Positions 42,044 through 59,179 are shown, counted from the stretch's first letter. The stretch: DNA of 64,000 nucleotides from Escherichia coli (GCF_011045215.1 NZ_CP049201.1); one strand, 5' to 3'. Program-made: numbers and translations. Notes: a model not told the origin generated them from the sequence alone.

Positions 42044-42119
42044 GCCGATATAGCTCAGTTGGTAGAGCAGCGCATTCGTAATGCGAAGGTCGTAGGTTCG
42101 ACTCCTATTATCGGCACCA
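42044..42119 (+). tRNA. thrW: tRNA-Thr (anticodon CGU)
   Basis: GCCGATATAGCTCAGTTGGTAGAGCAGCGCATTCGTAATGCGAAGGTCGTAGGTTCGACTCCTATTATCGGCACCA, cloverleaf with CGT anticodon and 3' CCA. Confidence 0.9.
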
Positions 42120-42133
42120 TTTAAATCAATAAG

Positions 42134-43297
42134 TTACACATCATTAGTACCTTCCTTATTTTTTGACTGGGACAAATTTGGGACCGATGGGTTCAGGATC
42201 GAGTCTATTTGCCGTGCGTGTTCGGTAAGGTGATTAGGTGCAAGGTGAGCATATCGACGAACCATTTCGATAGACTCCCAGCCTCCCATTTCCTGTAACA
42301 CTGACAACGGGACTCCGGCTTGAACCAGCCAACTTGCCCAGGTGTGTCTCAAGTCGTGAAATCTGAAATCATCAATACCAGCCCGTCTCAGCGCCGCTTT
42401 CCAGGCTGTGTTTGCGTCATACCGCATCTTCCTTACTGTTGGCGCTTTCGTTCCGTCTGGTTTGGTACAGCTTTCCTTGTACACAAATACCCAACGGTGA
42501 TGATTCCCGATTTGTTTTTTCAAAACGCGACATGCAGTATCATTCAGCGCAACGCCAATTGCGCGGTTTGATTTACTCTCTTCCGGGTTTATCCATGCCA
42601 CCCGGCGCTGCATGTCTATTTGTTGCCATTCAAGGTTGATGATGTTCGAGCGTCTTAAGCCTGTTGCCAGTGCAAATTCAACAACAGACTTTAATGGCTC
42701 CGGACATTCATCAATCAGCCTTTGTGCTTCATGGGGCTCCAGCCAGCGGATCCGTTTATTCTTTGGTTGAGGCACTTTAATAATTGGTGCCTTATCCAGC
42801 ATTTTCCATTCACGCTCTGCGGCTCTTAGTAGGGCCTTTATAAATGAAAGATGCGTAGCCTTCGTTGCAACGGACGCTGGTTTTGGCGTGTATTCTGGAA
42901 CAGGTTTCCCTTTTTTTCTGCATGCTTCTGCCCTGAGTCTCCAGTTTTCCTCATGACGCCGGTTCGTCATTTTCTGCATTGCTGAATAAATTTTTGATTC
43001 AGTAATGTCTCTTAGTTGCATTCCTGCGAAATGTTGAAGCCAGAATCCGATCCGGCTTTTGTCATCGTCCAGTGATTTTTTATGTGCTTTCTCTTCAAGC
43101 CACCTGACACACGCTTCCTCGAACGTTATATCAGGTATTTCACCAAGTTTGCTGACCCGCCATGCTTCAGCCTTTAGCTTGTCATGGAGTTCTGTCGCCT
43201 GCCTTTTGTCCTTTGTTCCAAGAGACTGTTTAAATCTTTTACCGTTCGGCAATGTGAAACTGGCGTACCATATTTCACCTCTGCGGAAGAGTGACAT
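42134..43297 (-). CDS. int: phage integrase (tyrosine recombinase, P22-like)
   Basis: 387 aa, C-terminal catalytic R..HxxR..Y region ([11 protein letters not shown]...RYAHL); adjacent to tRNA. Confidence 0.9.
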
Positions 43298-43524
43298 TTT
43301 CTTTCCTCTGTTATGCCATCACCCGCGCTCACCTGGACAGTATGCAGCGGAGACTGAAGAGCCGCAATGCAGGCTTGTCGTGTTGTGAGGTAAGGAGATT
43401 TATTCTTAGTGGGATCTTTGCGTGTTGCCTGAAGACGCCCTGTGCGTATCCAGTTGGTGGCAGTCGGTCTGGATATCTTGAGAAAATGACAGGCCTCATC
43501 GAGTGTGAGGCTGTATGGCTCCAT
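43174..43524 (-). CDS. xis: excisionase
   Basis: 116-aa ORF from [31 protein letters not shown] (HTH), overlapping int 5' end. Confidence 0.6.
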
Positions 43525-43829
43525 TATTTCACCTCTTGCTGTGACATTGTTGAAAAATGGATACCAGCTCGTTGCTGCCAGACGATCCAACCGAGAGTCA
43601 TATCCCATGCCATGTATTCGTTATTGCCGTTTTTTGCTCTCCGACGATCTACTAAGTCACCGAAACGCTTTTCCATGAATAATTCATAAGCTTCGCGTTC
43701 ATCTGGTTCTACTTCCAGAGATAGGAGTGCGATTTCATAAGCACGGCGCTCAATATCGTCTCGCACGTCAAGGCTGCTGATACGCTCTTTAATTTCTTTA
43801 ATCAGTTCTTTGTCGGTAAAAGTGGTCAT
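43524..43829 (-). CDS. hypothetical phage early protein
   Basis: 101-aa ORF tightly packed in early-left operon. Confidence 0.4.
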   Translation of the reverse strand: MTTFTDKELIKEIKERISSLDVRDDIERRAYEIALLSLEVEPDEREAYELFMEKRFGDLVDRRRAKNGNNEYMAWDMTLGWIVWQQRAGIHFSTMSQQEVK

Positions 43830-44191
43830 TATGCTCCAGCCTCCGGTGCTTTTGGCATTACTGCCCAGTGAGTGATATTGACGTTTTCAAGGTCCCCGAC
43901 CTGAAATGTCCACTGCCATTCTCCGGTTTCTTTTTGTCCCCAGGTGTACCAGAGAGAACGCCAGCCAATTAGCCAGCCTTCTCCGTTAGCATCGAATAAC
44001 AAAACACTTTCATTTGCTGGTGGCAGTTCAGTTGACACTGGTATTACTTTGTTTTCCTGTGCTGCACATTTAGCTTCAAGCGCATCGAATTTACGCACCA
44101 GGTATTCAGCATCTGTTTCATTTACTTTCAGATCTCGCGGTACACATCTCCCACGAAGAAACCCTTCCATTTCGAAAACATTCATGCGCAT
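43829..44191 (-). CDS. phage protein, DUF551-like
   Basis: C-terminal ...ITHWAVMPKAPE resembles the DUF551 signature; start/stop overlap with neighbours. Confidence 0.45.
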   Translation of the reverse strand: MRMNVFEMEGFLRGRCVPRDLKVNETDAEYLVRKFDALEAKCAAQENKVIPVSTELPPANESVLLFDANGEGWLIGWRSLWYTWGQKETGEWQWTFQVGDLENVNITHWAVMPKAPEAGA

Positions 44192-44730
44192 TTGCGTAAC
44201 TCCGATAACTCGTTAAAGCGTTCCATAAACATCCCGTAGGCATGGCCCGGTGCCAGTGGAATCACGTTGAACATCTCTGTTGCCGGGATACCTTCCAGTA
44301 CAGGCCAGAAAGAGCCATCATCAAGCCCGAGATCGCGGCGTTCGGTTGCCAGCATGATGAGATCGGCATATTTCACGGGTGTACTCATAACTGGGGGTAA
44401 CCCGTATTTCTCACGGATTACGGCGTCTATTTTTTCTTCCATCCGTTTATAGTCAGGAAGAAGGCGTTTCAGTGGTGCGGGAATGTCCTGGCAATACGCT
44501 TCTGTTGCATCATGCATTAACGCTTCAAAAGCAAATTCCTGCGGCACCAGCTGGCTGCAAAGAACCGCATGTTGGGCGACGCTGTAGAAGTGCGAAAGAT
44601 GACCGGCAAAGCGACAGATATTTGAAAGGGAAACCGCGATATCGTTAATATCGATGTCGTCTTTATTTATCTTGTCATAATAAAAATGCTTCCCGGAAAA
44701 AGTTTTAATAAATGACATTTTGTTCTCCAC
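44182..44730 (-). CDS. HD-domain phosphohydrolase (YfdR-like 5'-deoxynucleotidase)
   Basis: HD motif (LMHDATEAY) and upstream His (HFYSVAQH). Confidence 0.65.
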   Translation of the reverse strand: MENKMSFIKTFSGKHFYYDKINKDDIDINDIAVSLSNICRFAGHLSHFYSVAQHAVLCSQLVPQEFAFEALMHDATEAYCQDIPAPLKRLLPDYKRMEEKIDAVIREKYGLPPVMSTPVKYADLIMLATERRDLGLDDGSFWPVLEGIPATEMFNVIPLAPGHAYGMFMERFNELSELRKCA

Positions 44731-44845
44731 GTATATGCACTACACCGCGCTGAATTCTGGTAAAAGGAAGCCCTCACCATCCGGTGATTATTGAGTTAAT
44801 TACGTTTCCATAAATGCCCCCGCAGGGGCATTTGCAGTAATGAAA

Positions 44846-45670
44846 TCAGGCGGTGAAAGTACCAATAAAGGTTTCTACTTTGCTGTCCTTGAATTTCTCA
44901 ACAAGCAGATCACGAAATTCGTTAGCCATTTCTTCCTGCACCGCCTCCAGCTGAATAATGCGCAGAACCAGTACCGGACGATCGCCAGTGATAATGCTGA
45001 GGCGTAATTTAAACGGACGTTCTTTCAGACCTTCAAACGGAATGCATTTAAATTCAAATGCCACTGGCATAATGTCTTTGGTCTTCGCTTCGACAGACTC
45101 CATCAGGGAGCGTTTGCCGCTGAAGTCATTATCTTCAAAATCAGCGGTCTGGTTTGCTTCAATCGTGATTTTACGGACCGCCGCAGCCGCTTTTGTTGCC
45201 TGAATGGTGTCACCATTAGCATCAAAGCCCACAAGGTAGTCGGCCCAGTCTTCAATCCATTCTGCCAGTGATTTCTGGGAGTTACGCTCGCCATTAACAG
45301 ACAACAGAGCAGAGAACGGTGCTGTCTTTTTCAGTTTGAGAGTGGCGGTGTTATCTGCGTGACCTGGTTCATCAATAGTACCCAGGTTAAGCACACTGAC
45401 GGCACGCATATTATCAGCATCGATAAAGCAGCGGGTGCCTTCATCTGCAAGATCTTTAGAATAACGGGTAAAGTCATCGATGCTGGCAGTGGAAAGCGCA
45501 CCACGGAAACGGAAGCGATTTAAATTAAATTTTTCCAGATCATGAATGCGGAAATTCTCAGGCAATGCCACAGCATCGGCACCAATCTTACTGATAATTT
45601 CATTAACACCCTGAGCAGAAATAAGGGCATGGATTTGATTAATTGCGGTTGCGTCTAAGTTCTGAGACAT
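44846..45670 (-). CDS. phage protein, DUF2303 (YfdQ-like)
   Basis: 274 aa, resembles CPS-53 YfdQ as remembered. Confidence 0.55.
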
Positions 45671-45735
45671 AATAAGTCCTCACTATATAAAGATATTCAG
45701 TGATGAGATAAATAATCAGTTTATTACGAACGATA

Positions 45736-46098
45736 TTAACGACCTGCTGCGCGGAGTTTTCCGTCAGGTTCACCGGCAAGAGTCAGTAATTGTCCCTGGT
45801 CTTCCTGCAGAATAGTCAGGCGACCACCGCGATTGACATACATCGGCGTTTCGGTGGTGTCTTCTTCGGAAATTTTCCCGCGGTTAGTTGGGCGAACATA
45901 TGAGAGTTTGTGTTTGATTTTCACACGGTTCTCATCAAACGGTTCGATTTCCAGATTGAGTGAGACCTTCCCTTTGGTTTTCGTGTTCATCACACCGGAA
46001 GCGACCTCACTGAGAACTGCGCCGATTTTGGTTTCAAATACGCCGCCGTCCAGCTCCCCGATAAATGCCTGCACATCAGTACTGCGTTCGCTAGCCAT
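45736..46098 (-). CDS. hypothetical phage protein
   Basis: 120-aa ORF from MASERSTDVQ; the longer listed ORF extends upstream without support. Confidence 0.4.
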   Translation of the reverse strand: MASERSTDVQAFIGELDGGVFETKIGAVLSEVASGVMNTKTKGKVSLNLEIEPFDENRVKIKHKLSYVRPTNRGKISEEDTTETPMYVNRGGRLTILQEDQGQLLTLAGEPDGKLRAAGR

Positions 46099-46536
46099 TT
46101 TGCTGCTCCTCATCATATCGACCCTGCAAGGTCGGTTGGTTTCTCCACAAAACAGAGAAGAACACCTGCGGTGGCAGCCGCCCGGATGGATTGGGTTATG
46201 AGCCCGTCGTCCGGTGATGCTCTTCTCTGTTTTGCAAAAAAGGACGGTACCAGCCGGAAGCAAGGGTACAAACTGGTACCGCCAGGACTACACACAGCAT
46301 AAAGTTGTGGTGCCGGGTGCCTCCCGGTGCCTGGCGAAGGTTGCACACCAGGCGGGTGGGTATCCACAGAAGGTCGACTGTCAGCCTCAACCTTAACCCG
46401 CGTGCGCTGAGCCGCATTCACCACAACGCTAAGGATTCTCTTTGGTTGAAAATACTTAGCTGTTATGTGCCTGTCTTTTCACCACTTCAGGCTCGGTGGT
46501 ATCCTTTTAAGCCCGTATACATAAAAGGAAAATCAA

Positions 46537-46782
46537 ATGACTTTTGATGAAAAAGAACTTGATAATGCAATTAATAAAATCATCGTAACGTCGCTCTTTT
46601 CCTGTCTCAGCGACACTCAGCAGAAACAGTTCTACGAATCGGCTTTCAACATGATCGAGCGTTGTTGTTTCTGCGATGCCGACGAGTTACCTGAAAAAAT
46701 CAGGAAACAGTTGGCTGATGCTCTTCGAGTGCGACTTTCTGACCAATTTTCTGAAATGTGCTCTCCGAATTTGGACAAATAG
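46537..46782 (+). CDS. hypothetical small protein
   Basis: 81-aa ORF with GGA-type RBS upstream; overlaps a minus-strand ORF, so only one is likely real. Confidence 0.3.
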   Translation: MTFDEKELDNAINKIIVTSLFSCLSDTQQKQFYESAFNMIERCCFCDADELPEKIRKQLADALRVRLSDQFSEMCSPNLDK

Positions 46783-47168
46783 AAAAAGGCCATTTCCATT
46801 CAGGGTCTGATGGAAATACTTCAGCCTGTTCCAAAGCACGGCGTAAAGAGAACACAACTCCAGCCATAATCTGATGTTTCCCATTGGTCCAGCTATCGCC
46901 GCTCTGATCTACAGGGGCGGCTATGTCGTATGACCAAACGACTTCACAGTTATTGTTTAAAATCTGGACTTTCATTTCATACACCTGCTTTAACATGAGT
47001 GCCTAGTGGCACAACATGACTCAACGAATCATCCTGGATTTCATATGCCCCAGGCGGCTACTTCGTGGGCGTCCTGCCTGTTCGTTGTTTCTTTTGGGTA
47101 CATTATGTATCTCAAAGGTACATTGTCAAGTATAAAAAAACCTGCCGAAGCAGGTTCATAAACATTGA

Positions 47169-47843
47169 TTAGGCTTTGATTTTGTATCTTCTTGGTTTTC
47201 CTGAGAAAATCACTGTACCAATTATAGAGCAATTACCGTTGATCTTAATGTAAGGCTCAGGCCAGTTTGGGTTTAACGCTTTGAGATAACGCTGTGTCCC
47301 ATCTTCTATCAACCTTTTGAAGGTGGTTTCGCCTGTATCGTGCATCAATGCAATAACGTCGTCACCGTGGCAGGCAGGTACTTCAGGATCGACAAAAATC
47401 ATGTCTCCCGGGCGGTACTCATCAATCATTGAATCACCTATCACCCGCAAGATATAAGTCATTTCCCCACAGGGTACAGGGCAGGGATACGTTTCTGCTG
47501 TGCTCAAATCAACCTCAGAATATCCAACTTCTTTCCATGCTCCGGCCTGTACCCATGATATGACAGGGACTAATGTGATTTGTTTATTAGTGATTGAAAC
47601 ATCAGGTTTTTTTGTGATGTTCGTTGTCTGGTGTTCTTGATCGAGCCATCCGACAGGCAGGTCGAAACATTTTTCGATGTGTCGTGCCATGCTGTCACCG
47701 ATATTTTTAGTAGCACCATCTCCCATAAACCTGCTGGTCTGGGTTGGCTCGCGATCAATCATAGTGGCAAAGGAAGAATTCCCGCCAACACCATCTCTCA
47801 GTTTTCTGGCGTTAGACCGCCGGATGTCATGGATTGTTTTCAT
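47169..47843 (-). CDS. cI: phage repressor CI (HTH plus S24 LexA-like peptidase domain)
   Basis: 224 aa; C-terminal S24 domain with Ser (GDSM) and Lys; divergent from cro. Confidence 0.85.
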   Translation of the reverse strand: MKTIHDIRRSNARKLRDGVGGNSSFATMIDREPTQTSRFMGDGATKNIGDSMARHIEKCFDLPVGWLDQEHQTTNITKKPDVSITNKQITLVPVISWVQAGAWKEVGYSEVDLSTAETYPCPVPCGEMTYILRVIGDSMIDEYRPGDMIFVDPEVPACHGDDVIALMHDTGETTFKRLIEDGTQRYLKALNPNWPEPYIKINGNCSIIGTVIFSGKPRRYKIKA

Positions 47844-47933
47844 AACGAAATTAAAACCCTTGTACCGTTAAGGTACAAGTATCTTGAAGGTTCATTTCAA
47901 TCATGTAATATGTACACCGGAGGTACATATTGT
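47844..47933. promoter_or_regulatory. cI/cro divergent promoter-operator region
   Basis: Inverted repeats with GTAC cores: cttgtaccgttaaggtacaag (47857-47877) and atgtacaccggaggtacat (47911-47929). Confidence 0.5.
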
Positions 47934-48134
47934 ATGAAAGCGTATTGGGACTCTTTAACCAAAGAACAGCAGGGCGAGTTGGCCGGAAAAGTTGGCTCAA
48001 CACCTGGCTACTTACGGCTGGTTTTCAATGGCTATAAAAAAGCCAGTTTTGTGCTGGCTAAAAAACTTGAGCAATGCACGTCAGGTGCAATTACGAAATC
48101 TGACTTAAGACCGGATATCTATCCGAAAGATTAG
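47934..48134 (+). CDS. cro: Cro-like repressor
   Basis: 67-aa ORF from MKAYWDSL, divergent from cI; the longer listed ORF overlaps cI antisense. Confidence 0.65.
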   Translation: MKAYWDSLTKEQQGELAGKVGSTPGYLRLVFNGYKKASFVLAKKLEQCTSGAITKSDLRPDIYPKD

Positions 48135-48165
48135 CAGAACACTTTCAATTTTTAACCACAGAACG

Positions 48166-48729
48166 ATGAGGCTAACCGTGGGTAAGCATCACTGGAAAAT
48201 AGAAAAACAGCCTGAGTGGTACGTGAAAGCTGTCAGAAAAACTATCGCGGCGTTGCCGGGTGGTTACGCTGAAGCGGCTGACTGGCTCGATGTAACAGAA
48301 AACGCTTTATTCAACCGCCTTCGTGCAGATGGCGATCAGATTTTCCCGCTGGGATGGGCAATGGTTTTACAGCGTGCTGGTGGCACTCACTTCATTGCTG
48401 ATGCTGTGGCGCAGTCTGCAAATGGCGTCTTTGTGTCTCTTCCTGACGTCGAGGATGTGGACAACGCCGATATCAACCAACGCCTGCTGGAAGTCATTGA
48501 ACAGATCGGCAGTTATTCAAAACAGATTCGTTCAGCAATTGAAGACGGTGTAGTGGAACCGCATGAGAAGACAGCAATTAACGACGAGCTGTACCTCTCA
48601 ATTTCGAAGCTGCAGGAGCATGCAGCACTGGTCTACAAAATTTTTTGCATTTCAGAAAGTAATGACGCCCGCGAGTGTGCAGCTCCGGGCGCCGTGGCGT
48701 GTCGTGACTGTGGAGAAACTAACGCATGA
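48166..48729 (+). CDS. phage regulatory protein (CII-like / YdaT-family position)
   Basis: 187 aa immediately after cro; product assignment by position only. Confidence 0.4.
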
Positions 48730-49073
48730 ACAGTTTAACAACACACTACCGTCGCTCGCAACTGATTGCGCTTCCTGTACCGGGTGGAAAAGCGAAGGTG
48801 GAGTATTGCTATGCAGTAAATGTACCAGGTGACAGGGAAATTGTAACCCACAGCTTTGCAGAGTGGGCTGTGGGTGATTTCAACCGGCAGAAGGAGACAG
48901 TCCTTTGCGACAAGTTAACCGCTGGTTCAAAGATCACTACGGAGTGCCCGTCAGAGTCATTCGTTGGGAGCCGGAAACACAACGTGTTATCTACCTCCGC
49001 GAAGGCTATGAGCATGAGTGCTTCAGCCCGCTCGAACAGTTTCGTCGTAAATTCAGGGAAATAGAGGTCGGTC

Positions 49074-50015
49074 ATGAGCACTAAATTAACCGGCTATGTA
49101 TGGGATGGTTGCGCTGCATCAGGCATGAAATTATCCAGCGTGGCAATTATGGCCCGCCTGGCTGATTTCAGTAATGACGAAGGTGTGTGCTGGCCATCAA
49201 TTGAAACCATTGCCCGCCAGATTGGCGCGGGAATGAGTACCGTCAGAACGGCTATCGCACGGCTGGAAGCAGAAGGCTGGTTAACGCGTAAGGCGCGTCG
49301 CCAGGGTAACCGCAATGCGTCGAATGTTTATCAGCTTAACGTTGCGAAGCTTCAGGCAGCGGCATTTTCTCAACTGTCAGATTCTGACCCGTCAAAATCT
49401 GACGCATCAAAATCTGACCCGTCAAAATTTGATGCGTCGAAATCTGGCAAAAAAGCGGGTTTTCACCCGTCAGAATCTGGCGGGGATCCGTCAGTAAAAT
49501 CAAAACATGATCCGTCAGATAAAAAAACTTCTCGTCCGGACGCTTCGCAACCGGACACGCAGACGGCTGAACAGGAGTTTTTAACTCGCCATCCTGATGC
49601 GGTTGTATTCAGCCCTAAAAAGCGCCAGTGGGGAACGCAGGATGATTTGACCTGCGCACAGTGGCTCTGGAAAAAAATCATCGCCCTGTACGAGCAGGCC
49701 GCCGAATGTGACGGCGAGGTGGTTCGTCCCAAAGAACCGAACTGGACAGCCTGGGCAAACGAAATTCGCCTGATGTGTGTGCAGGATGGTCGTACTCATA
49801 AACAAATCTGCGAGATGTACAGCCGCGTCAGTCGCGATCCGTTCTGGTGCCGTAACGTGCTCAGCCCGTCGAAGCTGCGGGAAAAATGGGATGAGCTTTC
49901 CCTGCGCTTATCGCCGTCCGTCAGCACGTACACCGAAAAACGCGAAGACCCGTACTTCAAAGCCAGTTACGACAACGTGGACTACAGCCAGATCCCGGCA
50001 GGATTCAGGGGGTGA
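49074..50015 (+). CDS. replication initiation protein (lambda O-like) with internal iteron-encoded repeats
   Basis: HTH N-terminus (GMSTVRTAIARLEAEGWLT), repeated SDPSKSDASKSDPSKFDASKS segment. Confidence 0.7.
   Translation: MSTKLTGYVWDGCAASGMKLSSVAIMARLADFSNDEGVCWPSIETIARQIGAGMSTVRTAIARLEAEGWLTRKARRQGNRNASNVYQLNVAKLQAAAFSQLSDSDPSKSDASKSDPSKFDASKSGKKAGFHPSESGGDPSVKSKHDPSDKKTSRPDASQPDTQTAEQEFLTRHPDAVVFSPKKRQWGTQDDLTCAQWLWKKIIALYEQAAECDGEVVRPKEPNWTAWANEIRLMCVQDGRTHKQICEMYSRVSRDPFWCRNVLSPSKLREKWDELSLRLSPSVSTYTEKREDPYFKASYDNVDYSQIPAGFRG
49375..49445. repeat. tandem about 18-bp iterons, candidate phage replication origin
   Basis: tcaaaatctgac(c/g)c(g/a) repeated 4 times inside the O-like gene. 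Confidence 0.5.
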
Positions 50016-50506
50016 GCATGAGTCTTTTGAATGACGTTCAGAAATTCATTGAAGCCCATCCGGGCTGTACTTCCGGAGATATTGCGGATGCTTTTGCCGG
50101 TTACTCACGGCAGCGCGTTCTGCAGTCAGCAAGCAAGTTACGTCAGAGTGGGCGTGTGGCTCACCGTTGTGAAGGAGATACACGCAGACATTTCCCGCGC
50201 CTGACTGAGAGAGCGCAGGAACCGGAACCACAACCAGTTCGTGAAACCAGACCTGTGCGCAATTTCTATGTCGGCACTAACGATCCCCGTGTGATTTTGT
50301 GCCTGACCCGCCAGGCGGAAGAACTGGAGTCCAGGGGCTTATACCGTCGTGCTGCAACCGTGTGGATGGCGGCATTCCGTGAAAGCCACTCCCAGCCAGA
50401 ACGAAACAATTTTCTGGCGCGTCGTGAGCGGTGCTTACGGAAAAGCAGCAAGCGCGCTGCATCGGGTGAAGAGTGGTATCTGTCAGGGAATTACGTGGGG
50501 GCTTAA
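50012..50506 (+). CDS. phage protein with PerC-like C-terminal domain
   Basis: AEELESRGLYRRAATVWMAAFRES resembles the PerC/Pch signature. Confidence 0.45.
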   Translation: MSMSLLNDVQKFIEAHPGCTSGDIADAFAGYSRQRVLQSASKLRQSGRVAHRCEGDTRRHFPRLTERAQEPEPQPVRETRPVRNFYVGTNDPRVILCLTRQAEELESRGLYRRAATVWMAAFRESHSQPERNNFLARRERCLRKSSKRAASGEEWYLSGNYVGA

Positions 50507-51159
50507 TGAGTAATAAATATTGCCAGGCGCTGGTGGAACTGCGGAACAAACCAGCCCATGAACTGAAGGAAGTGGGCGATCAGTGGCGCACGCCGGACAA
50601 CATTTTCTGGGGAATTAACACCCTGTTTGGCCCGTTTGTTCTGGATCTGTTCACTGACGGTGATAACGCCAAATGTGCCGCGTATTACACGGCGGAAGAC
50701 AACGCGCTGGCGCATGACTGGTCAGAACGTCTTGCGGAGCTTAAAGGTGCTGCCTTTGGTAATCCCCCATACAGCCGCGCCAGTCAGCATGAGGGGCAAT
50801 ACATCACCGGCATGCGTTACATCATGAAACATGCCAGTGCCATGCGTGATAAGGGCGGGCGCTATGTTTTCCTGATCAAAGCTGCCACCAGCGAAGTGTG
50901 GTGGCCGGAAGATGCAGATCATATTGCTTTTATTCGCGGGCGTATTGGTTTTGAACTGCCTGTCTGGTTTATCCCGAAAGACGAGAAGCAGGTACCGACA
51001 GGAGCTTTTTTCGCTGGTGCTATTGCTGTTTTTGACAAGACCTGGAAGGGACCGGCAATCAGCTACATCGGGCGCGATGAACTTGAGGCATGTGGTGAGG
51101 CGTTTCTGGCGCAGGTTCGCCAGCAGGCGGAAAAACTGGTCAGGGAGATGGCGGCATGA
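50506..51159 (+). CDS. phage DNA N6-adenine methyltransferase (Dam-like)
   Basis: NPPY motif (FGNPPYSRA); start at MSNKYCQ. Confidence 0.75.
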   Translation: MSNKYCQALVELRNKPAHELKEVGDQWRTPDNIFWGINTLFGPFVLDLFTDGDNAKCAAYYTAEDNALAHDWSERLAELKGAAFGNPPYSRASQHEGQYITGMRYIMKHASAMRDKGGRYVFLIKAATSEVWWPEDADHIAFIRGRIGFELPVWFIPKDEKQVPTGAFFAGAIAVFDKTWKGPAISYIGRDELEACGEAFLAQVRQQAEKLVREMAA

Positions 51160-51482
51160 CGACGTTAACTCAATGCCAGCAGCAGGTGCTGGATATGCTG
51201 ATTTCTTATCAGAAAGAACGTGGCTTCCCGCCAACCAATCAGGAGGTGGCAACCATGCTGGGATACCGTTCGGTGAATGCAGCGGTGGAGCATCTTCGCG
51301 CACTGGAGAAAAAAGGCGTCATCACGATAAAGCGTGGCGTGGCCCGGGGGATAACGCTTCATACCGCGGTGAAGGACGACGACAGCGAGGCGGTCGGGAT
51401 TATCCGCGCACTGCTTGCCGGTGAGGAAAACGCAAGGCTGCGTGCAACCCACTGGTTACATGAGAGGGACCTGAAAGTATGA
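51156..51482 (+). CDS. LexA-like DNA-binding domain protein
   Basis: N-terminus resembles LexA winged helix (QQQVLDMLISYQKERGFPPTNQEVATMLGYRSVNAAVEHLRALEKKGVI). Confidence 0.6.
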   Translation: MTTLTQCQQQVLDMLISYQKERGFPPTNQEVATMLGYRSVNAAVEHLRALEKKGVITIKRGVARGITLHTAVKDDDSEAVGIIRALLAGEENARLRATHWLHERDLKV

Positions 51483-51868
51483 AGCTGATCCTGCCTTTTC
51501 CGCCCAGCGTGAACACGTACTGGCGACACCCCAACAAAGGGGCGTTTGCTGGTAAGAGCCTGATAAGCGCGGCGGGGCGAAAATTCCAGAGCGCGGCGTG
51601 CGCAGCAATAGTTGAGCAGTTACGTCGTCTGCCGAAACCAACGTCGGCACCTGCTTCAGTGGAGATCGTGTTGTTTCCTCCGGATAACCGGATCCGCGAT
51701 CTGGACAACTATAACAAGGCGCTGTTTGACGCCCTGACCCACGCGGGTGTGTGGGAAGACGACAGTCAGGTGAAAAGAATGCTGGTGGAGTGGGGGCCGG
51801 TTATCCCGGAAGGGAAGGTCGAGATCACTATCAGTAAGTACGAGAAAACGGCGGGTGCAGCCGCCTGA
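51479..51868 (+). CDS. rusA: Holliday junction resolvase RusA
   Basis: 129 aa, conserved DLDNYNKALFDAL region. Confidence 0.85.
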   Translation: MKLILPFPPSVNTYWRHPNKGAFAGKSLISAAGRKFQSAACAAIVEQLRRLPKPTSAPASVEIVLFPPDNRIRDLDNYNKALFDALTHAGVWEDDSQVKRMLVEWGPVIPEGKVEITISKYEKTAGAAA

Positions 51869-51887
51869 TTAAGAGGAGAAACGAAGT

Positions 51888-52685
51888 ATGAATAATCTGA
51901 TGGTCATTGATGGTATTGAAGTTCGTCGTGATGCTTATGGGCGTTACAGCCTGAACGATCTGCACAGGGCTGCCGGTTCTCAGGATAAGCATAAGCCTGC
52001 ATTCTGGCTCCGCAATGAGCAAACCGAACGTTTAATAAGCGAGTTGCAGATTTGCAACTCGGTCAATATAGAGCCAGTTAACGTTAGTCGTGGCGGAAAT
52101 AACCAGGGGACGTATGTCTGCAAAGAACTGGTGTATGCCTATGCAATGTGGATCAGCCCGTCATTCCATCTGAAGGTGATCCGTACTTTCGATATGGTAA
52201 CCAGCGCACCGGAAAAATTATCCGGGCAGGCTGCTGACAAGATGCAGGCTGGCGTGATTCTGCTGGACTTTATGCGCCGGGAGTTAAACCTGTCTAACTC
52301 ATCTGTGCTTGGGGCCTGTCAGAAACTCCAGGAGGCTGTTGGCTTACCGAATCTGGCACCACGCTATGCCATTGATGCTCCTGCTGACGCGCCTGATGGC
52401 TCAAGTCGCCCTACGCTGTCGCTGAGTGCACTGCTGAAACAGTATGGTATCCGCCTGACAGCTAATCAGGCATATCACCAGATGGCGAAGCTGGGGATCG
52501 TTGAACAACGCGAACGATACAGCCGTACCGCGATTAACAACATCAAAAAATTCTGGTCGCTGACGGCGAAAGGCTGCATGTTCGGCAAGAACATTACCAG
52601 TCCTGCAAATCCGCGCGAGACGCAGCCGCATTTCTTCGAATCCCGATTCCCTGAGCTGTTAAAGCTGCTCGATACCGTTCATTGA
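51888..52685 (+). CDS. KilA-N domain protein (antirepressor-like)
   Basis: N-terminal KilA-N-like region (VIDGIEVRRDAYGRYSLNDLHRAAG). Confidence 0.5.
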   Translation: MNNLMVIDGIEVRRDAYGRYSLNDLHRAAGSQDKHKPAFWLRNEQTERLISELQICNSVNIEPVNVSRGGNNQGTYVCKELVYAYAMWISPSFHLKVIRTFDMVTSAPEKLSGQAADKMQAGVILLDFMRRELNLSNSSVLGACQKLQEAVGLPNLAPRYAIDAPADAPDGSSRPTLSLSALLKQYGIRLTANQAYHQMAKLGIVEQRERYSRTAINNIKKFWSLTAKGCMFGKNITSPANPRETQPHFFESRFPELLKLLDTVH

Positions 52686-52686
52686 G

Positions 52687-53682
52687 GTGACCGTGAGAGC
52701 ACTACTGACCCCTGAAATTGCCCCGCGTATGGGGATCGTATTGTTCAGACCAGGTTCAGAGCTGATGCCCCTGTTTATGCAGGGGCGTGTACTGCTGGAG
52801 CCTGAGCCGGAACGTTATTCATCTTTCGCCAGTGGTGCCGTTCCCGCGGCATCACAACCGCTGGCGGATGATCCTGCTGTTCGGGCCGTGTTCCGCAATG
52901 AGGCAGTGATCCGTCGTGCTGGTGGCGTGGAATGTCTTGAAAGCTGGTTACTTCGTGAAAAAGGCTGCCAGTGGCCTCATTCCGACTGGCACAGCGAGAA
53001 CATGACCACAATGCGACACGCTCCGGGCGCAATCCGTCTGTGCTGGCACTGTGATAACCAGCTGCGCGATCAGTTCACGGAACGGCTGGAATCAATGGCA
53101 ACGGATAACTGTGCCCGCTGGGTGTTGTCTGTTGTGCGTCGGGATCTCGGTTTTGATGATAGTCACGTTGTGACAATGCCGGAACTGTGCTGGTGGCTGA
53201 TTCGTAATGACCTGGCGGATGCCTTACCGGAAAGTGCAGCCCGTAAGGCACTGAGATTACCAAAGCCTGTTGTGCCGTCTGTCACCCGGGAAAGTGACCT
53301 TGTGCCTTCGGTTCCTGCCACCAGCATCATCCAGGATAAGGCAAAAAAGGTGCTGGCGCTGAAAGTGGATCCGGAGTCGCCGGAGTCTTTTATGTTACGC
53401 CCAAAACGTCGCCGCTGGGTTAATGAGAAGTACACGCGCTGGGTTAAGACACAGCCGTGTGCATGTTGTGGAAAGCCCGCTGATGATCCCCACCACCTGA
53501 TAGGCCACGGTCAGGGGGGAATGGGTACAAAAGCGCATGACCTCTTTGTGTTGCCTTTGTGCAGAAAGCATCACGACGAGCTGCATGCGGATACCGTGGC
53601 ATTTGAAGAGAAGTATGGCTCCCAGCTGGAGCTGATATTTCGTTTTATCGATCGTGCGCTGGCAATTGGCGTGCTGGCCTGA
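52687..53682 (+). CDS. phage protein, DUF968-like (Cys/His-rich)
   Basis: C-terminal CxxC...HH...PLCRKHHDELH pattern. Confidence 0.5.
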   Translation: MTVRALLTPEIAPRMGIVLFRPGSELMPLFMQGRVLLEPEPERYSSFASGAVPAASQPLADDPAVRAVFRNEAVIRRAGGVECLESWLLREKGCQWPHSDWHSENMTTMRHAPGAIRLCWHCDNQLRDQFTERLESMATDNCARWVLSVVRRDLGFDDSHVVTMPELCWWLIRNDLADALPESAARKALRLPKPVVPSVTRESDLVPSVPATSIIQDKAKKVLALKVDPESPESFMLRPKRRRWVNEKYTRWVKTQPCACCGKPADDPHHLIGHGQGGMGTKAHDLFVLPLCRKHHDELHADTVAFEEKYGSQLELIFRFIDRALAIGVLA

Positions 53683-53696
53683 TTTGGTGGAGAAAG

Positions 53697-54065
53697 TTGA
53701 TGCGTGATATTCAGATGGTTCTTGAGCGTTGGGGAGCATGGGCGGCGAGTGATAGTTCAGGCGTTGACTATTCACCTATAGCTGCTGGGTTTAAGGGACT
53801 TCTTCCCTATACCAGCAAGAAACGCTTGGCTTGTTCGGATAGTGATGCATTAATTATTGAAGGTTGTCTTGCTCGTCTAAAGCAAAAAAGACCTTATGAG
53901 CATTCGCTTCTTGTGGCACATTATTTATACAGAATATCCAAGCGTAAGATTGCAAAGGCGCGTGGAAAGGATGAGAAATTGATACGTATAGAAATACAGC
54001 TAGCCGAAGGATTTATTGATGGCTGCCTTTCCATGCTAGATCTAACATTAGATTTGGACGTTTAA
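53697..54065 (+). CDS. Q: late-gene antitermination protein Q
   Basis: 122 aa with LERWGAWA motif; positioned before the lysis genes. Confidence 0.65.
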   Translation: MMRDIQMVLERWGAWAASDSSGVDYSPIAAGFKGLLPYTSKKRLACSDSDALIIEGCLARLKQKRPYEHSLLVAHYLYRISKRKIAKARGKDEKLIRIEIQLAEGFIDGCLSMLDLTLDLDV

Positions 54066-54066
54066 T

Positions 54067-54091
54067 AATACGCCCCATGCAGGGGCGTATT
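54067..54091. terminator. bidirectional hairpin terminator between Q and the KAP NTPase gene
   Basis: Perfect inverted repeat aatacgcccc-atgca-ggggcgtatt flanked by A/T runs. Confidence 0.5.
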
Positions 54092-54093
54092 AT

Positions 54094-55425
54094 TTACTGG
54101 ATGAATGACATTTGATTAATATATTTTATCAATAACTCTCTGGGTGTAGTACTCCAAAAATTTAGGTGTTCATAATCAGTATAAACATTGGTGAATTTTT
54201 TAAGTTCTTCATCACTTTTAGGGGCAAATCGCTCATTAAGAGTAATACTGTCTTTAATTATTCCGAAGAATACAATAGATATTTCAGGAATTTGCGATCT
54301 TCTCTCATAAGAATAAGGTATTTCTTTTATGTTAAGCAGATCTGCTAAATGAGATATAGATTCTGCGGTAATTTCTTGTTTTAGTTTTTCCTTGTCACCA
54401 AAGCAATGTATGAAGACAGCTACGACAAAGATCTTATTTATTAAAGGATCACTGCTTTTGTACTCATCGTCGTTTAATAGTTGAAAAATGTTAAGATTGC
54501 GTGAAAAAGTTTGTGTTTCACGTAAGGATAAGTTGGTTCGTTGAATTAAATCACGGATAAATCTACCAGATAAACTATTAATTTCATTTAATGATTTTGT
54601 CTTGTCTACAAGGTAATTCCAATATATAACAGATGTTTTACATACGACGTGACCATTTATTAAACATGTGTCTGGAAGCGTGATGGTATATTTTATAAAC
54701 TTGTCAAGATACTTTTGTGAGTTAATACTATAACCATAAATATGATTTATCGATGCTTTTAATTGTTCTGTGTTTGTAACTAAAATAAAAAAGACATTAT
54801 TGATGTCAAAAATGTGTTTTATTGTTTCAATGACATTTGTTGAAAAACTCGGCTTACATCGGTCTAATTCATCAATTATAATTACTATCTTTTGACTTTC
54901 TGAAATGCTTTCGATGCAAGATTTAAGTGAATTTATGTTTTTCTCTGATTCCATATGGTCTTCAAGCAAATTTTCAATAGTCCCATCTATTGCTGCATTG
55001 CTTGCTTTCTTCATCGCATCTTGGAATTCTTCGGAAACTTCACTAGCCTCCTGTCGTAAAAACCAACCTGCACCAGCTTTTAGTACCGTTTTTAAACCAA
55101 AGCGAATTGCAGGAAGAGATCTCTTAATGAAGTGTTGTTTTTCTTCCTCAGGTAAAATGCTGGCAATTGCAGAGGTTATGAGAAGTAATGGAGATTCTGC
55201 ATGATCCCCTTTAAAGGCATCAATATAAACAACTTTAGATTCAGTTTCTTGCTCAATAATGAGATTTTTCAGTTTGATACTAAATTCTGTTTTCCCTGTT
55301 CCCCATGCGCCGTCTATTACCAGTGGTGAAATGTCTGCCTCTGGTTTTAGCAACTTGATGATATTTTCAGCGATGTTTCTGCGTTGGAACTCGTCACGTT
55401 CAGTGAAAGATAGTGTATCTAACAT
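54094..55425 (-). CDS. KAP-family P-loop NTPase (prophage cargo; candidate defense protein)
   Basis: 443 aa; Walker A DGAWGTGKT, Walker B IIIDELDR; AT-rich; antisense to the late operon. Confidence 0.75.
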   Translation of the reverse strand: MLDTLSFTERDEFQRRNIAENIIKLLKPEADISPLVIDGAWGTGKTEFSIKLKNLIIEQETESKVVYIDAFKGDHAESPLLLITSAIASILPEEEKQHFIKRSLPAIRFGLKTVLKAGAGWFLRQEASEVSEEFQDAMKKASNAAIDGTIENLLEDHMESEKNINSLKSCIESISESQKIVIIIDELDRCKPSFSTNVIETIKHIFDINNVFFILVTNTEQLKASINHIYGYSINSQKYLDKFIKYTITLPDTCLINGHVVCKTSVIYWNYLVDKTKSLNEINSLSGRFIRDLIQRTNLSLRETQTFSRNLNIFQLLNDDEYKSSDPLINKIFVVAVFIHCFGDKEKLKQEITAESISHLADLLNIKEIPYSYERRSQIPEISIVFFGIIKDSITLNERFAPKSDEELKKFTNVYTDYEHLNFWSTTPRELLIKYINQMSFIQ

Positions 55426-55487
55426 AATATAAACCTATTAACTCCTACAGTAAAAAACGAATAATACGACTTTGGGATTAAAAATCA

Positions 55488-55516
55488 TTAACGCGGTCCG
55501 CAAAAATTCTTGTAAT
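55488..55516 (+). promoter_or_regulatory. candidate late promoter (PR'-like)
   Basis: TTAACG -35 and TGTAAT -10 with 17-bp spacer, upstream of terminator and holin. Confidence 0.35.
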
Positions 55517-55548
55517 CTGTTAAGAGTGGTTACTTCGCCACACAGCTT

Positions 55549-55582
55549 AAACCCGCCGTCGAGCGGGTTTTGTCGTTTTTGT
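55549..55582 (+). terminator. intrinsic terminator (tR'-like, Q target)
   Basis: aacccgc-cgtcga-gcgggtt hairpin followed by ttttgtcgttttt. Confidence 0.45.
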
Positions 55583-55721
55583 TGCTGGGGATTCGTTGGG
55601 CCTGGCCTATCCAGCAGTTATCCATTGGTTCGGCTCTTTGACGTTTCCGCTTCTGATTTGCGGTACATGATGTTCCCTCAATTTGCACCTGCTGTATCAG
55701 CGAGGTGAGAGATAACTACAA

Positions 55722-56048
55722 ATGCCTCATAACCCAAATACTTGGCTGGACTTGGTCCAGAGCTGGTGGCGTGGAGACACACCGCTGGGCGCAGTGATTA
55801 TGTCGATTGTTATGGCTGGTTTGCGTATCGCCTACTTTGGTGGTGGTGGCGGCTGGAAGCGAAAAACGCTCGAGATTTTGCTCTGTGGCGCTCTGACTCT
55901 GACTTTTGCATCCGCGCTTGAGTATGTCGGATGGCCTAAATCACTTTCTGTTGCCATTGGTGGTGGCGTTGGGTTGATCGGTGTCGATGCTATTCGTGGG
56001 GCTGCAATGAGAGTAATCGGTAATAAGTTTGGTGGCTCTAAGGAGTAA
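55722..56048 (+). CDS. S: holin
   Basis: 108 aa, hydrophobic helices, charged C-terminus; directly upstream of endolysin. Confidence 0.6.
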   Translation: MPHNPNTWLDLVQSWWRGDTPLGAVIMSIVMAGLRIAYFGGGGGWKRKTLEILLCGALTLTFASALEYVGWPKSLSVAIGGGVGLIGVDAIRGAAMRVIGNKFGGSKE

Positions 56049-56051
56049 TTT

Positions 56052-56528
56052 ATGCAGGTACTAAATTCCCAGCGTAAAGCTTTCCTCGATATGGTGGCAT
56101 GGTCAGAAGGAACGGATAACGGGCGACAACCGACACGTAACCACGGTTATGATGTTATTGTTGGCGGCGAACTGTTCACTGATTACTCCGATCACCCTCG
56201 CAAACTTGTCACGCTAAACCCCAAACTCAAATCAACAGCCGCCGGGCGTTATCAGCTTCTTTCACGCTGGTGGGATGCTTACCGTAAACAGCTTGGTTTG
56301 AAAGACTTCTCCCCCAAAAGCCAGGACGCAGTGGCATTGCAGCAGATTAAAGAGCGTGGCGCTTTACCGATGATTGATCGCGGTGATATCCGTCAGGCTA
56401 TCGATCGTTGCAGCAATATCTGGGCGTCATTACCCGGCGCTGGTTACGGTCAGTATGAACATAAAATCGGTGACCTGATTGCCCGATTCAAAGAGGCTGG
56501 CGGGGTGGTAAATGAAGTTGAGCTATAA
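56052..56528 (+). CDS. R: endolysin (lambda R-like lytic transglycosylase)
   Basis: Matches lambda R as remembered (NSQRKAFLDMVAWSEGTDNGRQPTRNHGYDVIVGG...). Confidence 0.9.
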   Translation: MQVLNSQRKAFLDMVAWSEGTDNGRQPTRNHGYDVIVGGELFTDYSDHPRKLVTLNPKLKSTAAGRYQLLSRWWDAYRKQLGLKDFSPKSQDAVALQQIKERGALPMIDRGDIRQAIDRCSNIWASLPGAGYGQYEHKIGDLIARFKEAGGVVNEVEL

Positions 56529-56973
56529 GCTGGTTATCGTTGCTTTCTTCGTTACTGTCATTGGTTCTTTCATCTGTTCAGTGAATCGTTACCACAATAA
56601 AGCCATTGAATACAAAATGCAGCGTGATGAGAATGCTATGGCATTAGATTCGGCTATGGCGACCATCTTTGATATGCAGAAGCGTCAACGTGACGTAGCA
56701 GAACTTGACGCCAGATACACAAAGGAGCTTGCTGATGCTAATGCGACTATCGAAAGTCTCCGTGCTGATGTTTCTTCTGGGCGTAAGCGCCTGCAAGTCG
56801 CCGCCACCTGTGCAAAATCAACGACCAGAGCCAGCGGCATGGGCGATGGAGAAAGCCCAGGACTTACAGCAGATGCTGAATTCAATTATTACCGTCTCCG
56901 AAGTGGAATCGACAGGATAACCGCACAGGTTAATTACCTACAGGAATACATCAGAACTCAATGCATGAATTAA
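56512..56973 (+). CDS. Rz: i-spanin Rz
   Basis: 153 aa, N-terminal TM, coiled-coil body; overlaps R stop. Confidence 0.8.
   Translation: MKLSYKLVIVAFFVTVIGSFICSVNRYHNKAIEYKMQRDENAMALDSAMATIFDMQKRQRDVAELDARYTKELADANATIESLRADVSSGRKRLQVAATCAKSTTRASGMGDGESPGLTADAEFNYYRLRSGIDRITAQVNYLQEYIRTQCMN
56735..56920 (+). CDS. Rz1: o-spanin Rz1 (lipoprotein embedded in Rz, +1 frame)
   Basis: Lipobox GVSAC followed by Pro-rich segment; start codon choice uncertain. Confidence 0.6.
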   Translation: MLMRLSKVSVLMFLLGVSACKSPPPVQNQRPEPAAWAMEKAQDLQQMLNSIITVSEVESTG

Positions 56974-57582
56974 AAGAGGCAGATTGATCGTGTTTTCGAA
57001 GTGTTATACCACGCCCGTTCTGTTAATTTGGCAAAATCTGTTCTGATGCAATGAGTATCGAAAGATTTATTGGACTGGTTGCTTTGGTTATCACTGTTAT
57101 CGCTGGAGTTGTTGGCCTAGGGCGTATCCGTGGCACTAGTAAAAGAAGAGGTTAAAACTGCTCTGTTATACACTGAAGTTAACGCAGCGGCTAAGCACTC
57201 AGCAGCAGGACACCGTGTAGAGGCAACGGAAGAGGCCAGAAATATACAGCAGACTATTAACCATATTCCTGGTGACTCTGTTGAGCGCGGTATGCATAAG
57301 AAATACAAACGTACAATTTGAAGTGGTATATTTTTCTTGTTAGTAGATGAATATAATATACCACACAGAATACGATATAATTATTGCTCATGCTTACCTA
57401 AATATGAAAAACAATAAAGTTATAAGTAGACAAGTGTTTTGTTACTTTTAATAATTGATGTGATGTATATATTAAGATTGAAAAATTTAATCATTCTTTC
57501 CACATATAAATTAAGTGGTTCCCTTAGCTTGTCATTTTTGATGATAAGTGAGAGAATATGAACATTATATGATGGAGATAAT

Positions 57583-57894
57583 ATGTCAAACATAAAAATC
57601 AAACAAGCTATTGAAAAGATTGCGGAGTTCAGAGCAGCATCTGCTGCGATGGCTGATGCTCACATGGTTCTTATTACAGAGCTATTGAACTCAATTGAGG
57701 ATATCCGCAAAAACTCTGGTGATAATCTCTCTGAGTTTGAAAAAGGACAGGTTGCTCTCTACATAAAAATTAGCCCAGTTGTGAAAAATGGAATTTCGAG
57801 TATTGAAAAATATAATGAGTCTTTAAGTTCAGACTATGTTGAGGCTATGAACTCCTTATCTAAAATTGCGGGAGGGAATTCAAATGTCGATTGA
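57583..57894 (+). CDS. hypothetical protein (first gene of AT-rich three-gene cargo operon)
   Basis: 103-aa ORF with RBS, predicted helical; AT-rich. Confidence 0.4.
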   Translation: MSNIKIKQAIEKIAEFRAASAAMADAHMVLITELLNSIEDIRKNSGDNLSEFEKGQVALYIKISPVVKNGISSIEKYNESLSSDYVEAMNSLSKIAGGNSNVD

Positions 57895-58270
57895 AGATGT
57901 TGGAAGCATCCTTGATAGATTAAAAGTAGCCAGGATCGAAAATAAAAAAATTGAAGAGTCAGCTGGAAAAGCAGAGGAAAATGCTGTTAACTCTAAGCAT
58001 ACTGATGGTAAAACACGAAGCGCCTTAACTATTACGTTTCTCTGGTTCTTTTTTTGCCTTCTTATTTTTAGCTGTCTTTTTGTTCTTTGGTATAATAATT
58101 CTGTTGTGAATTGGGCTTTAGAGTTAAAGAGCAAAGGTGTTGATGATTACGTTCAATATTTAAAGCCACTCGAGCTGGAAAAGGTATTGTCAATAATGAT
58201 TACTGCCCTTGGTACTTCATTAGGATTTATAATTGGGTATTATTTTAAGGATAAAGAAAATCATTCTTAA
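57884..58270 (+). CDS. hypothetical two-TM membrane protein
   Basis: Start MSIEDVG overlapping upstream stop; two hydrophobic helices (LTITFLWFFFCLLIFSCLFVLWY, VLSIMITALGTSLGFIIGYYF). Confidence 0.4.
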   Translation: MSIEDVGSILDRLKVARIENKKIEESAGKAEENAVNSKHTDGKTRSALTITFLWFFFCLLIFSCLFVLWYNNSVVNWALELKSKGVDDYVQYLKPLELEKVLSIMITALGTSLGFIIGYYFKDKENHS

Positions 58271-58315
58271 TATAGAGTTATCTCTAAAGATAACGAATTT
58301 TAATAGGAGGGTAGA

Positions 58316-58618
58316 ATGTCTGAACTGAATTATGAAGCAATAGGTCGCTGCAAAATCCTTAATGAAAAGATCAAAGATCTTCATGCTGAACGAATGAAAG
58401 CTATTGGTGATTTACGTACTGCTGTCTATGCCCTTCATCAGAAAGGGAATGTAAACCTCATCCCACCAGAAATTGTTGAATTCAACCCCCAATCGCTTAC
58501 ATCCCTTGTAGAGAAGGTTGGTCACTATGATGGTGAGCTGATGCGAGCTGTACATGAGTACAACAACTGGTGTGTAGAAGCAGGCGAGAAACCCGTAAAA
58601 CTTATAAAGCTAGACTGA
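58316..58618 (+). CDS. hypothetical protein
   Basis: 100-aa ORF with GGAGG RBS; followed by hairpin plus T-run at about 58630-58665. Confidence 0.4.
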   Translation: MSELNYEAIGRCKILNEKIKDLHAERMKAIGDLRTAVYALHQKGNVNLIPPEIVEFNPQSLTSLVEKVGHYDGELMRAVHEYNNWCVEAGEKPVKLIKLD

Positions 58619-58703
58619 AACAACAAATTTATGCAAATCATTAGCCTCGCACATGCGGGGCTTTTTTATGCGCACCACACATGCACATCAAAGAGAGTCT
58701 TCA

Positions 58704-59054
58704 ATGCCGCCACGAATCCCAAAAGCCTGCCGTGTTCGCGGTTGCCGCCATACCACGACTGACCCGTCAGGCTACTGCGAAAGCCACAAAAGCGAAGGCT
58801 GGAAGCAATACAAACCTAGACAATCCCGTCATCAGCGCGGCTACGGTTCGAAGTGGGACAGTATCCGCGCGCGTGTCCTGAAGCGTGACAAAGGCCTGTG
58901 TCAGTTATGTCTGCGTGCCGGTGTGGTGCGTGAGGCGAAAGCCGTTGACCACATCATCCCTAAAGCGCATGGCGGCACTGATGCCGACTGTAATCTGCAG
59001 AGTCTGTGCTGGCCGTGTCATAAGGCGAAGACGGCCCGTGAACGGCTGAAGTGA
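58704..59054 (+). CDS. HNH endonuclease (terminase-associated)
   Basis: Cys-rich HNH motif (CQLCLRAG...VDHIIPKAHGGTD...NLQSLCWPCHKAK). Confidence 0.8.
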   Translation: MPPRIPKACRVRGCRHTTTDPSGYCESHKSEGWKQYKPRQSRHQRGYGSKWDSIRARVLKRDKGLCQLCLRAGVVREAKAVDHIIPKAHGGTDADCNLQSLCWPCHKAKTARERLK

Positions 59055-59179
59055 TAATAATTCTCAACTGTCTGAGGGGAGGGGCGGGTCAAATCCCTGT
59101 GACCTGACGTCTTCCGGACTGCCCGCCCCATCGTTTTTTTATACCCGCGAAAAATGAAATTTAACCAGGAGTGCCGCAT

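Follow-up and report, generated by a model that had tools for sequence, protein, structure and literature searches.

Is the short tandem repeat inside the replication initiator gene of an Escherichia coli prophage kept for its DNA or for the peptide that it encodes, and, if for its DNA, which protein reads it? We address this question in a stretch of 64,000 nucleotides (nt) from E. coli (GCF_011045215.1, NZ_CP049201.1), referred to below as the window, in which an open reading frame (ORF) of 313 amino acids (aa) at 49074..50015 on the + strand encodes an O-like replication initiator of the type of SfIV gp41, the SfII 'O protein family' gene and K-12 yfdO. The repeat array lies in frame within this ORF and encodes SDPSK SDASK SDPSK FDASK SG. 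An earlier interpretation made from the window's letters by themselves (the sequence-only reading) had proposed that the array is a candidate prophage origin, placed as in lambda within the initiator gene. We arrive at a similar view, to which we give a probability of about three in four: the array would be the initiator-binding part of the replication origin of a lambdoid prophage like SfIV, SfII and SfV. This view draws support from conservation at synonymous sites, from a change of reading frame in phage phiP27, and from the presence of other arrays in initiators with other DNA-binding domains. We infer a candidate origin of ~190 base pairs (bp), at ~49370-49560, embedded in the gene of its own initiator; it would provide a concrete candidate for a very common E. 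coli/Shigella prophage family.

The repeat array and its conservation as DNA

Tandem Repeats Finder confirms a tandem array at 49383-49446, with a period of 15 bp, 4.3 copies, 81% matches and the consensus TCTGACCCGTCAAAA, and also detects a 30-bp super-period with 88% matches. Read in register, the repeats form five tandem units at 49374-49448, candidate iterons to which no strand is assigned: unit 1 (CTGTCAGATTCTGAC, 49374-49388), unit 2 (CCGTCAAAATCTGAC, 49389-49403), unit 3 (GCATCAAAATCTGAC, 49404-49418), unit 4 (CCGTCAAAATTTGAT, 49419-49433) and unit 5 (GCGTCGAAATCTGGC, 49434-49448). An outlier, unit 6 (CCGTCAGAATCTGGC, 49467-49481), is found at the same relative position in five of five close relatives, and a degenerate unit 7 (AAATCAAAACATGAT, 49497-49511) falls within the A-rich segment described below. 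The sequence-only reading had placed four tandem units of about 18 bp at 49375-49445; its location for the array stands, while the unit is 15 bp long (as is the motif string which that reading itself gave) and there are five tandem units plus outliers.

Stacking 47 units from six phages reveals a conserved 11-bp core, TCARAWTCTGA, together with three free spacer positions. The core has 5-1-5 palindromic symmetry (TCAGA-W-TCTGA), without a mismatch in unit 1 and with one each in units 2, 3 and 6. When up to three mismatches are allowed, the 15-mer has eight matches, all clustered at 49374-49483, compared to 1.7 expected in the whole 64 kb; these eight represent six units, two of which match on the - strand as well. 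The exact core occurs at three sites, all in the array and none elsewhere in the window (0.13 expected), and no other tandem repeat within 40000-64000 scores 40 or more. Array length is constant among 80 close relatives, with no variation in copy number, and the array is therefore not slippage-prone; these relatives came from a viral-contig search with the N-terminal 160 aa that returned only 99-100% identity, which is too similar for divergence tests. The spacer between units 5 and 6 (AAAAAAGCGGGTTTTCAC, 49449-49466) contains runs of A6 and T4 and a short inverted repeat, CGGGT/ACCCG. Between the same two units, the - strand has a short GC-rich hairpin with a T run behind it (CGGGTGAAAACCCG CTTTTTTGCC, 49456-49469), which looks like an antisense terminator; we rejected it as a terminator, the hairpin not being conserved in relatives.

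More divergent initiators with the same N-terminal domain are found in Citrobacter phiNP, Klebsiella ST101-KPC2phi6.3, Escherichia Eeyore, Yersinia YeP1 and phiP27 (gene L17). All carry the same units at the same place, with two extra units in ST101-KPC2phi6.3. The sequence-only reading had itself raised the objection that the repeats might be a protein-level linker and nothing else; on checking, they prove to be conserved as DNA in phages of Citrobacter, Klebsiella, Yersinia and E. coli. A codon comparison with the four closer relatives (phiNP, ST101-KPC2phi6.3, Eeyore and YeP1) makes the distinction quantitative. The N-terminal domain (codons 1-97) has 81-88% amino-acid identity and uses identical codons at 34-47% of the positions where the amino acid is the same, whereas the linker that contains the array (codons 101-150) has only 64-84% amino-acid identity and yet 81-95% identical codons. 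Because the linker is thus lower than the domain in amino-acid identity and about twice as high in synonymous-codon identity, the linker-only reading is largely refuted. Among columns with one amino acid throughout the five phages, the codon too is constant in 17 of 23 from the linker, compared to 5 of 62 from the domain (Fisher p = 5e-9), and serine in the array is encoded by TCA or TCT in 59 of 66 cases, whereas the N-terminal domain uses all six serine codons. A sliding profile of synonymous identity against ST101-KPC2phi6.3, chosen because it has both domains in common with the window initiator, is high at ~49345-49580 and peaks at 49434-49553.

The peptide is less constrained: relatives tolerate replacement of S by F, I, T, N or P in the linker, and one phiP27 unit, CCTTCAGAATCTGGA, is in a different reading frame, where it encodes TLQNLD instead of PSESG. 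These comparisons indicate that the array DNA is under selection and that the encoded peptide is largely a passenger. Low amino-acid conservation combined with high synonymous-site conservation may serve as a reusable test for deciding whether an intragenic repeat is a DNA element or a peptide repeat. The deposited annotation of ST101-KPC2phi6.3 (L084 1501-2469) splits its initiator gene into small ORFs on both strands, and only the 3' end (2143-2469) is annotated as 'replication protein O'; the frame is open over its full 323 codons and can be aligned with the window gene along its entire length.

The arrays co-vary with the N-terminal domain. In five phages whose O-like initiators have another N-terminal domain, the corresponding place, directly behind the winged helix, is taken by a different array: mEp460_4F5 (23 bp x 5.4, GGTCAAAATGAC...), Stx2a_F451 (22-24 bp x 2.9, GGGGCAGGAGCTGCCCC), Klebsiella RAH1 (24 bp x 2, TGCCATCTGATGGCA), Aggregatibacter S1249 (21 bp x 4, GGTATGCCAGCAGATAGCAC) and Vibrio PF430-3 (three copies, GGTCAAATTCCGACC). 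Dyad symmetry is clear in the F451, RAH1 and Vibrio units, and several of the periods are not divisible by three. The match between mEp460_4F5 and the window gene begins at query nt 446 (window 49519), inside the A-rich segment, and is preceded by a different domain and array. The same domain and array also occur with other C-termini, of the Phg_2220_C type in phiNP, Eeyore and YeP1 (the sequence in common with phiNP extends only to ~49552) and of yet another type, with a DnaC-like gene, in phiP27. Exchange junctions thus fall beside the array, the pattern to be expected if domain and repeats form one specificity unit.

Two observations on the sister arrays may be added. In mEp460_4F5 (L002 2017-2997), the N-terminal domain is unrelated and has no Pfam match, and the array is followed by its own A-rich 12-mer, present three times (ACAGAGAATACA); although the domains differ, its units and those of the window have the half-site GTCAAAAT in common. 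In a second group of HTH_36 initiators (SI8, Stx2a_F451, ST64B sb42, RAH1 and Aggregatibacter S1249), the arrays, at ~nt 340-420 of each gene, differ among the members and are followed by a block that is near-identical as DNA from E. coli to Aggregatibacter, CCAGAACC(A/T)(G/A)TCACTCTT(T/C)TGAACCAGTCAA, with third codon positions conserved too. This block is probably another origin element, perhaps an unwinding or loading site.

Initiator domains, the A-rich segment and a proposed mechanism

The claim that the array, with its SDPSK/SDASK-type repeat, lies in an O-like initiator gene is borne out by a full-length match of the 313-aa product to PHROG 391, 'replication initiation O-like' (E = 1.6e-135, residues 1-313 on profile positions 1-298 of 298). 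Identities of the gene are 100% with that of vB_EcoS-569R4, 99.3% with SfIV gp41 and 98.3% with the SfII gene; its full length and the first two of these values agree with an intact replication gene, the sequence-only reading having suggested that the replication module is intact. Pfam places HTH_36 at aa 23-70 (E = 4e-11) and gives no match to Phage_rep_O in the initiator, with HTH_36, GntR and other winged-helix models matching instead, while NCBIfam and PDB sequence searches yielded nothing beyond generic winged-helix matches.

AlphaFold2, supplied with a 24-sequence alignment, models a winged helix with confidence at aa 1-102 and a folded helical domain at aa 162-281, and predicts disorder at aa 103-161 (predicted local distance difference test, pLDDT, <50). 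The winged helix, encoded at 49074..49379 (+), is the presumed reader of the iterons; in Foldseek comparisons with the PDB it matches winged helices of the MarR/ArsR type, which bind palindromes as dimers. The linker predicted to be disordered between the two domains coincides exactly with what the array and the A-rich DNA encode (49380-49556). The C-terminal helical domain, for which the coding region extends over 49557..50015 (+, aa 162-313), is the presumed recruiter of host replication proteins, and a protein database search with it returned mostly Enterobacteriaceae fragments and no informative names.

The candidate unwinding element is an A-rich segment at 49485..49532, composed of two 24-bp repeats that each start with GATC (GATCCGTCAGTAAAA / GATCCGTCAGATAAA). 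It contains the least stable 40-mer of the initiator gene in a stability profile (49493-49532, 72% A+T), which lies directly 3' of the units, where the sequence-only reading had suggested looking for an AT-rich region. Both GATC sites, at 49485 and 49509, belong to GAT-CC codon pairs that are kept in all relatives. All six related phages keep the pair by encoding Asp as GAT at these sites, and Asp is mostly GAC inside the units. Together with the phage's own Dam methyltransferase gene (50473-51159), two genes downstream of the initiator, the conserved GATC pair hints at control of the origin by methylation or SeqA. The right edge of the zone of DNA-level conservation is marked by a direct repeat, CTTCTCGTCCGGAC / CTTCGCAACCGGAC, that contains the palindrome GTCCGGAC (49528..49556), and the mEp460_4F5 junction is near. 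We dropped an involvement of DnaA: only one-mismatch DnaA boxes were found, at 48152-48709, and none in the origin zone.

From these elements we propose the following mechanism. Derepression would give rise to an early rightward transcript and the 313-aa initiator, whose winged helix (aa 1-102), probably as dimers, would bind the palindromic 11-bp cores. Five cores 15 bp apart and a sixth 33 bp further on would assemble an O-some-like nucleoprotein complex, which would destabilize the adjoining A-rich segment headed by the GATC sites, such that unwinding would start at 49485-49532. The C-terminal domain (aa 162-313) would then recruit the host helicase machinery directly, as no helicase or loader is encoded next to the initiator. 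Under this mechanism the SDPSK/SDASK peptide repeat would be a by-product, since the origin DNA doubles as code for the disordered interdomain linker.

Several points weigh against an origin at the array. Its period is a multiple of three, which narrows the argument from reading frame to the one phiP27 unit and the sister arrays. A centre-to-centre spacing of 15 bp is tight for winged-helix dimers. The least stable 40-mer reaches no more than the top 6% of the window and falls short of a classical unwinding element; the AT-rich region foreseen by the sequence-only reading is thus in place and modest in degree. Structure comparison found no convincing relative of the C-terminal domain, which makes the helicase-recruitment step a guess. 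Our literature search found no paper on the origin of SfII, SfIV, SfV, CPS-53 or yfdO-type phages, and experimental evidence of binding to these repeats exists solely for a host protein, SrsR (PMC9181523), a point that the sequence-only reading had overlooked.

SrsR and other explanations of the repeats

SrsR (YgfI) is a host LysR-type regulator whose strongest peak in K-12, by genomic SELEX (systematic evolution of ligands by exponential enrichment), is at the 'yfdO/yfdP spacer' (PMC9181523). There, a 66-bp DNase I footprint, obtained at a protein concentration of 10-40 µM, covers four 11-bp boxes, TCAaATTTTGa, TCAGATTTTGa (twice) and TCAGAgTcTGa; yfdO mRNA is 3.7-9.5-fold down in an srsR mutant and 10-12-fold up on overexpression (PMC9181523). 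We find that the four boxes are the reverse complements of units 4, 3, 2 and 1, with window 49374-49433 corresponding to K-12 positions 2568-2627 (L094); units 1-4 themselves read TCAGATTCTGA (TCAGACTCTGA in K-12), TCAAAATCTGA twice and TCAAAATTTGA. More broadly, K-12 L094 2501-2754 is identical to window 49307-49560 but for three positions. The K-12 yfdO gene is a pseudogene of the cryptic prophage CPS-53 that has lost the first 233 nt, including the DNA-binding domain, and because of this loss of the 5' part the array was read as promoter DNA by the authors of PMC9181523. Their text contains neither 'iteron' nor 'palindrome' and never uses 'origin' in the replication sense; the repeats were not recognized there as origin repeats. 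An independent later study saw no SrsR effect at fucAO, another proposed target and one of the weaker ones (PMC11011485), which leaves the phage array, it seems, as the only strong site of SrsR.

These data raise the alternative that the repeats are primarily an SrsR operator, with a promoter in or just downstream of the array that drives the PerC-like yfdN, dam and other genes in stationary phase or under oxidative stress, and with origin function absent or secondary. The SELEX peak, the footprint and the SrsR-dependent yfdO mRNA in K-12 all favor it, and taking TAAAAT at 49496-49501 as a possible -10 element would leave unit 6 near -35 and the other five, units 1-5, at ~-60 to -135, a LysR-like layout; this is offered as a suggestion from the sequence, and a simple consensus scan of 49300-49650 found no sigma-70 promoter, in the array or beside it. 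We nevertheless consider an operator as the primary role improbable. The motif is conserved as DNA in Klebsiella, Yersinia and Citrobacter phages, always directly after one particular initiator DNA-binding domain, and other initiator types have unrelated arrays at the same place, which an accessory site for a host regulator would not predict. The K-12 array appears intergenic only through the loss of 233 nt from its gene, and both the protein concentration of the footprint and the result at fucAO speak against SrsR as the main reader.

An origin and SrsR binding could also coexist. It is conceivable, if on the unlikely side, that SrsR and the phage initiator recognize the same 11-bp palindromes in SfIV/SfII-type lysogens, so that the host could gate phage replication or transcription through the origin, or that SrsR drives the PerC-like and Dam genes in response to stationary phase or oxidative stress; the yfdONMLK stress-tolerance operon of K-12 would have retained the dead origin as a control element that depends on SrsR. 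The identity with the SrsR boxes opens such a coupling of phage replication to a host regulator to direct test. It also bears on how the SrsR regulon is read: the published 'SrsR box', which defines the motif of this K-12 factor and is carried in regulon databases, would be a fossil phage origin array.

Iteron-binding initiators often autoregulate too, as in iteron plasmids. The array might accordingly bind a protein in a role other than initiation, be it autoregulation of the early operon, a roadblock or pause, or a partition- or incompatibility-like site, with the origin elsewhere, an option to which the more AT-rich stretches at 47102-47254 and 47571-48154 lend some color. Those stretches, though, are intergenic regions around the repressor gene and contain neither repeat arrays nor copies of the motif; the array itself is in mid-gene, 300 nt from any start codon and ill-suited to promoter control; and array, A-rich segment and conserved GATC pair travel together as one conserved block. 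We judge a role of this kind quite improbable.

That the repeat matters only as protein, a flexible low-complexity linker of Ser, Asp, Pro and Lys whose DNA repeat is a by-product of duplication, agrees with the tidy peptide repeat, its period of a multiple of three and the predicted disorder, but is made very improbable indeed by the opposite trends of amino-acid and codon identity, the tolerated serine replacements, the phiP27 unit in a different frame, the sister arrays whose 22-24 bp periods are not divisible by three, and the palindromic DNA of each unit.

Prophage setting and comparison with known origins

The early region around the candidate origin is lambdoid, with repressor, CII-like, initiator and PerC-family genes followed by Dam, LexA-like, RusA and KilA-N genes. 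The S24/LexA-like repressor gene is at 47169-47843 on the - strand (a small Cro-type gene is annotated beside its counterpart in SfIV and in E. coli Ecol_AZ146) and the CII-like gene at 48166-48729. Next downstream of the initiator is a yfdN-like gene of the PerC family (50012..50506, +; Pfam PerC E = 8e-9), a designation that agrees with annotations of SfIV and E. coli genomes; this PerC-family regulator gene occupies the position of lambda P. A small ORF of the DUF4222 type (48905-49084) overlaps the initiator gene and ends 11 nt inside it; in identical E. coli genomes, NCBI annotates this ORF and not the alternative 112-aa ORF at 48726-49064, which matches PHROG 1170.

No P-, DnaC- or DnaB-like partner gene lies beside the initiator or anywhere in the early right operon, and the initiator must therefore use host factors. 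Many phages of this family would be alike in having an initiator that works without a neighboring helicase or loader gene. A 24-kb query gave matches of ~97% to SfIV and SfV at window 42074-59112, with about half of its length covered, and 1575 of 5426 complete E. coli genomes (~29%) contain at least 80% of the initiator gene.

The lambda origin, in the middle of gene O, consists of imperfect repeats with internal dyad symmetry followed by an A+T-rich tract (PMC7466680), and its mutations include in-frame deletions within gene O (PMC6022878). As in lambda and the lambda-like Stx phages, the window repeats are in mid-gene, have dyad-symmetric units and are followed by an A-rich tract, if a modest one; the region that matches the in-frame deletions of lambda is predicted to be disordered; and the specificity module of N-terminal domain plus repeats is exchanged as a block. 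The systems differ in that the window units are 15 bp apart with an 11-bp core, compared to 19-bp iterons in lambda, and that there are five tandem units with one or two outliers, compared to four or six in lambda and the Stx phages. The N-terminal domain is HTH_36 and not Phage_rep_O, the next gene is PerC-like and not a P-like loader, the A-rich tract is weaker, and the window array is a candidate origin proposed from sequence comparison. The parallel with lambda in the sequence-only reading consequently holds for layout only, as the initiator has no Phage_rep_O match in Pfam and no P-like gene beside it. A 'P27' O protein described as lambda-like, with six iterons (PMC7466680), is not equated here with the phiP27 L17 gene of our comparison.

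There is precedent in lambda, P22 and phage L, in each of which the initiator gene contains repeats of its own (PMC8022706; PMC7466680). In P22 gene 18 there are four repeats of ~20 bp, and in L six imprecise 11-bp repeats, taken as the origin on a sequence argument (PMC8022706). The window gene resembles these as a distantly related lambdoid initiator with its own repeats in the coding region, and differs in repeat sequence, in initiator subfamily and in the absence of the phage DnaB-type helicase (gene 12) that P22 and L possess. The SrsR-box array of CPS-53 in K-12 is the same DNA, with the difference that the window gene is intact and its array coding, whereas the K-12 gene is truncated. 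Farther afield, the Bacillus phage SPP1 has its oriL within gene 38, which encodes the replisome organizer G38P, and encodes its own loader and helicase; the structural similarity found is too weak to count. Judged by sequence, the array is a further instance of a known layout, the origin inside the initiator gene, within the O-like initiators of the HTH_36 type.

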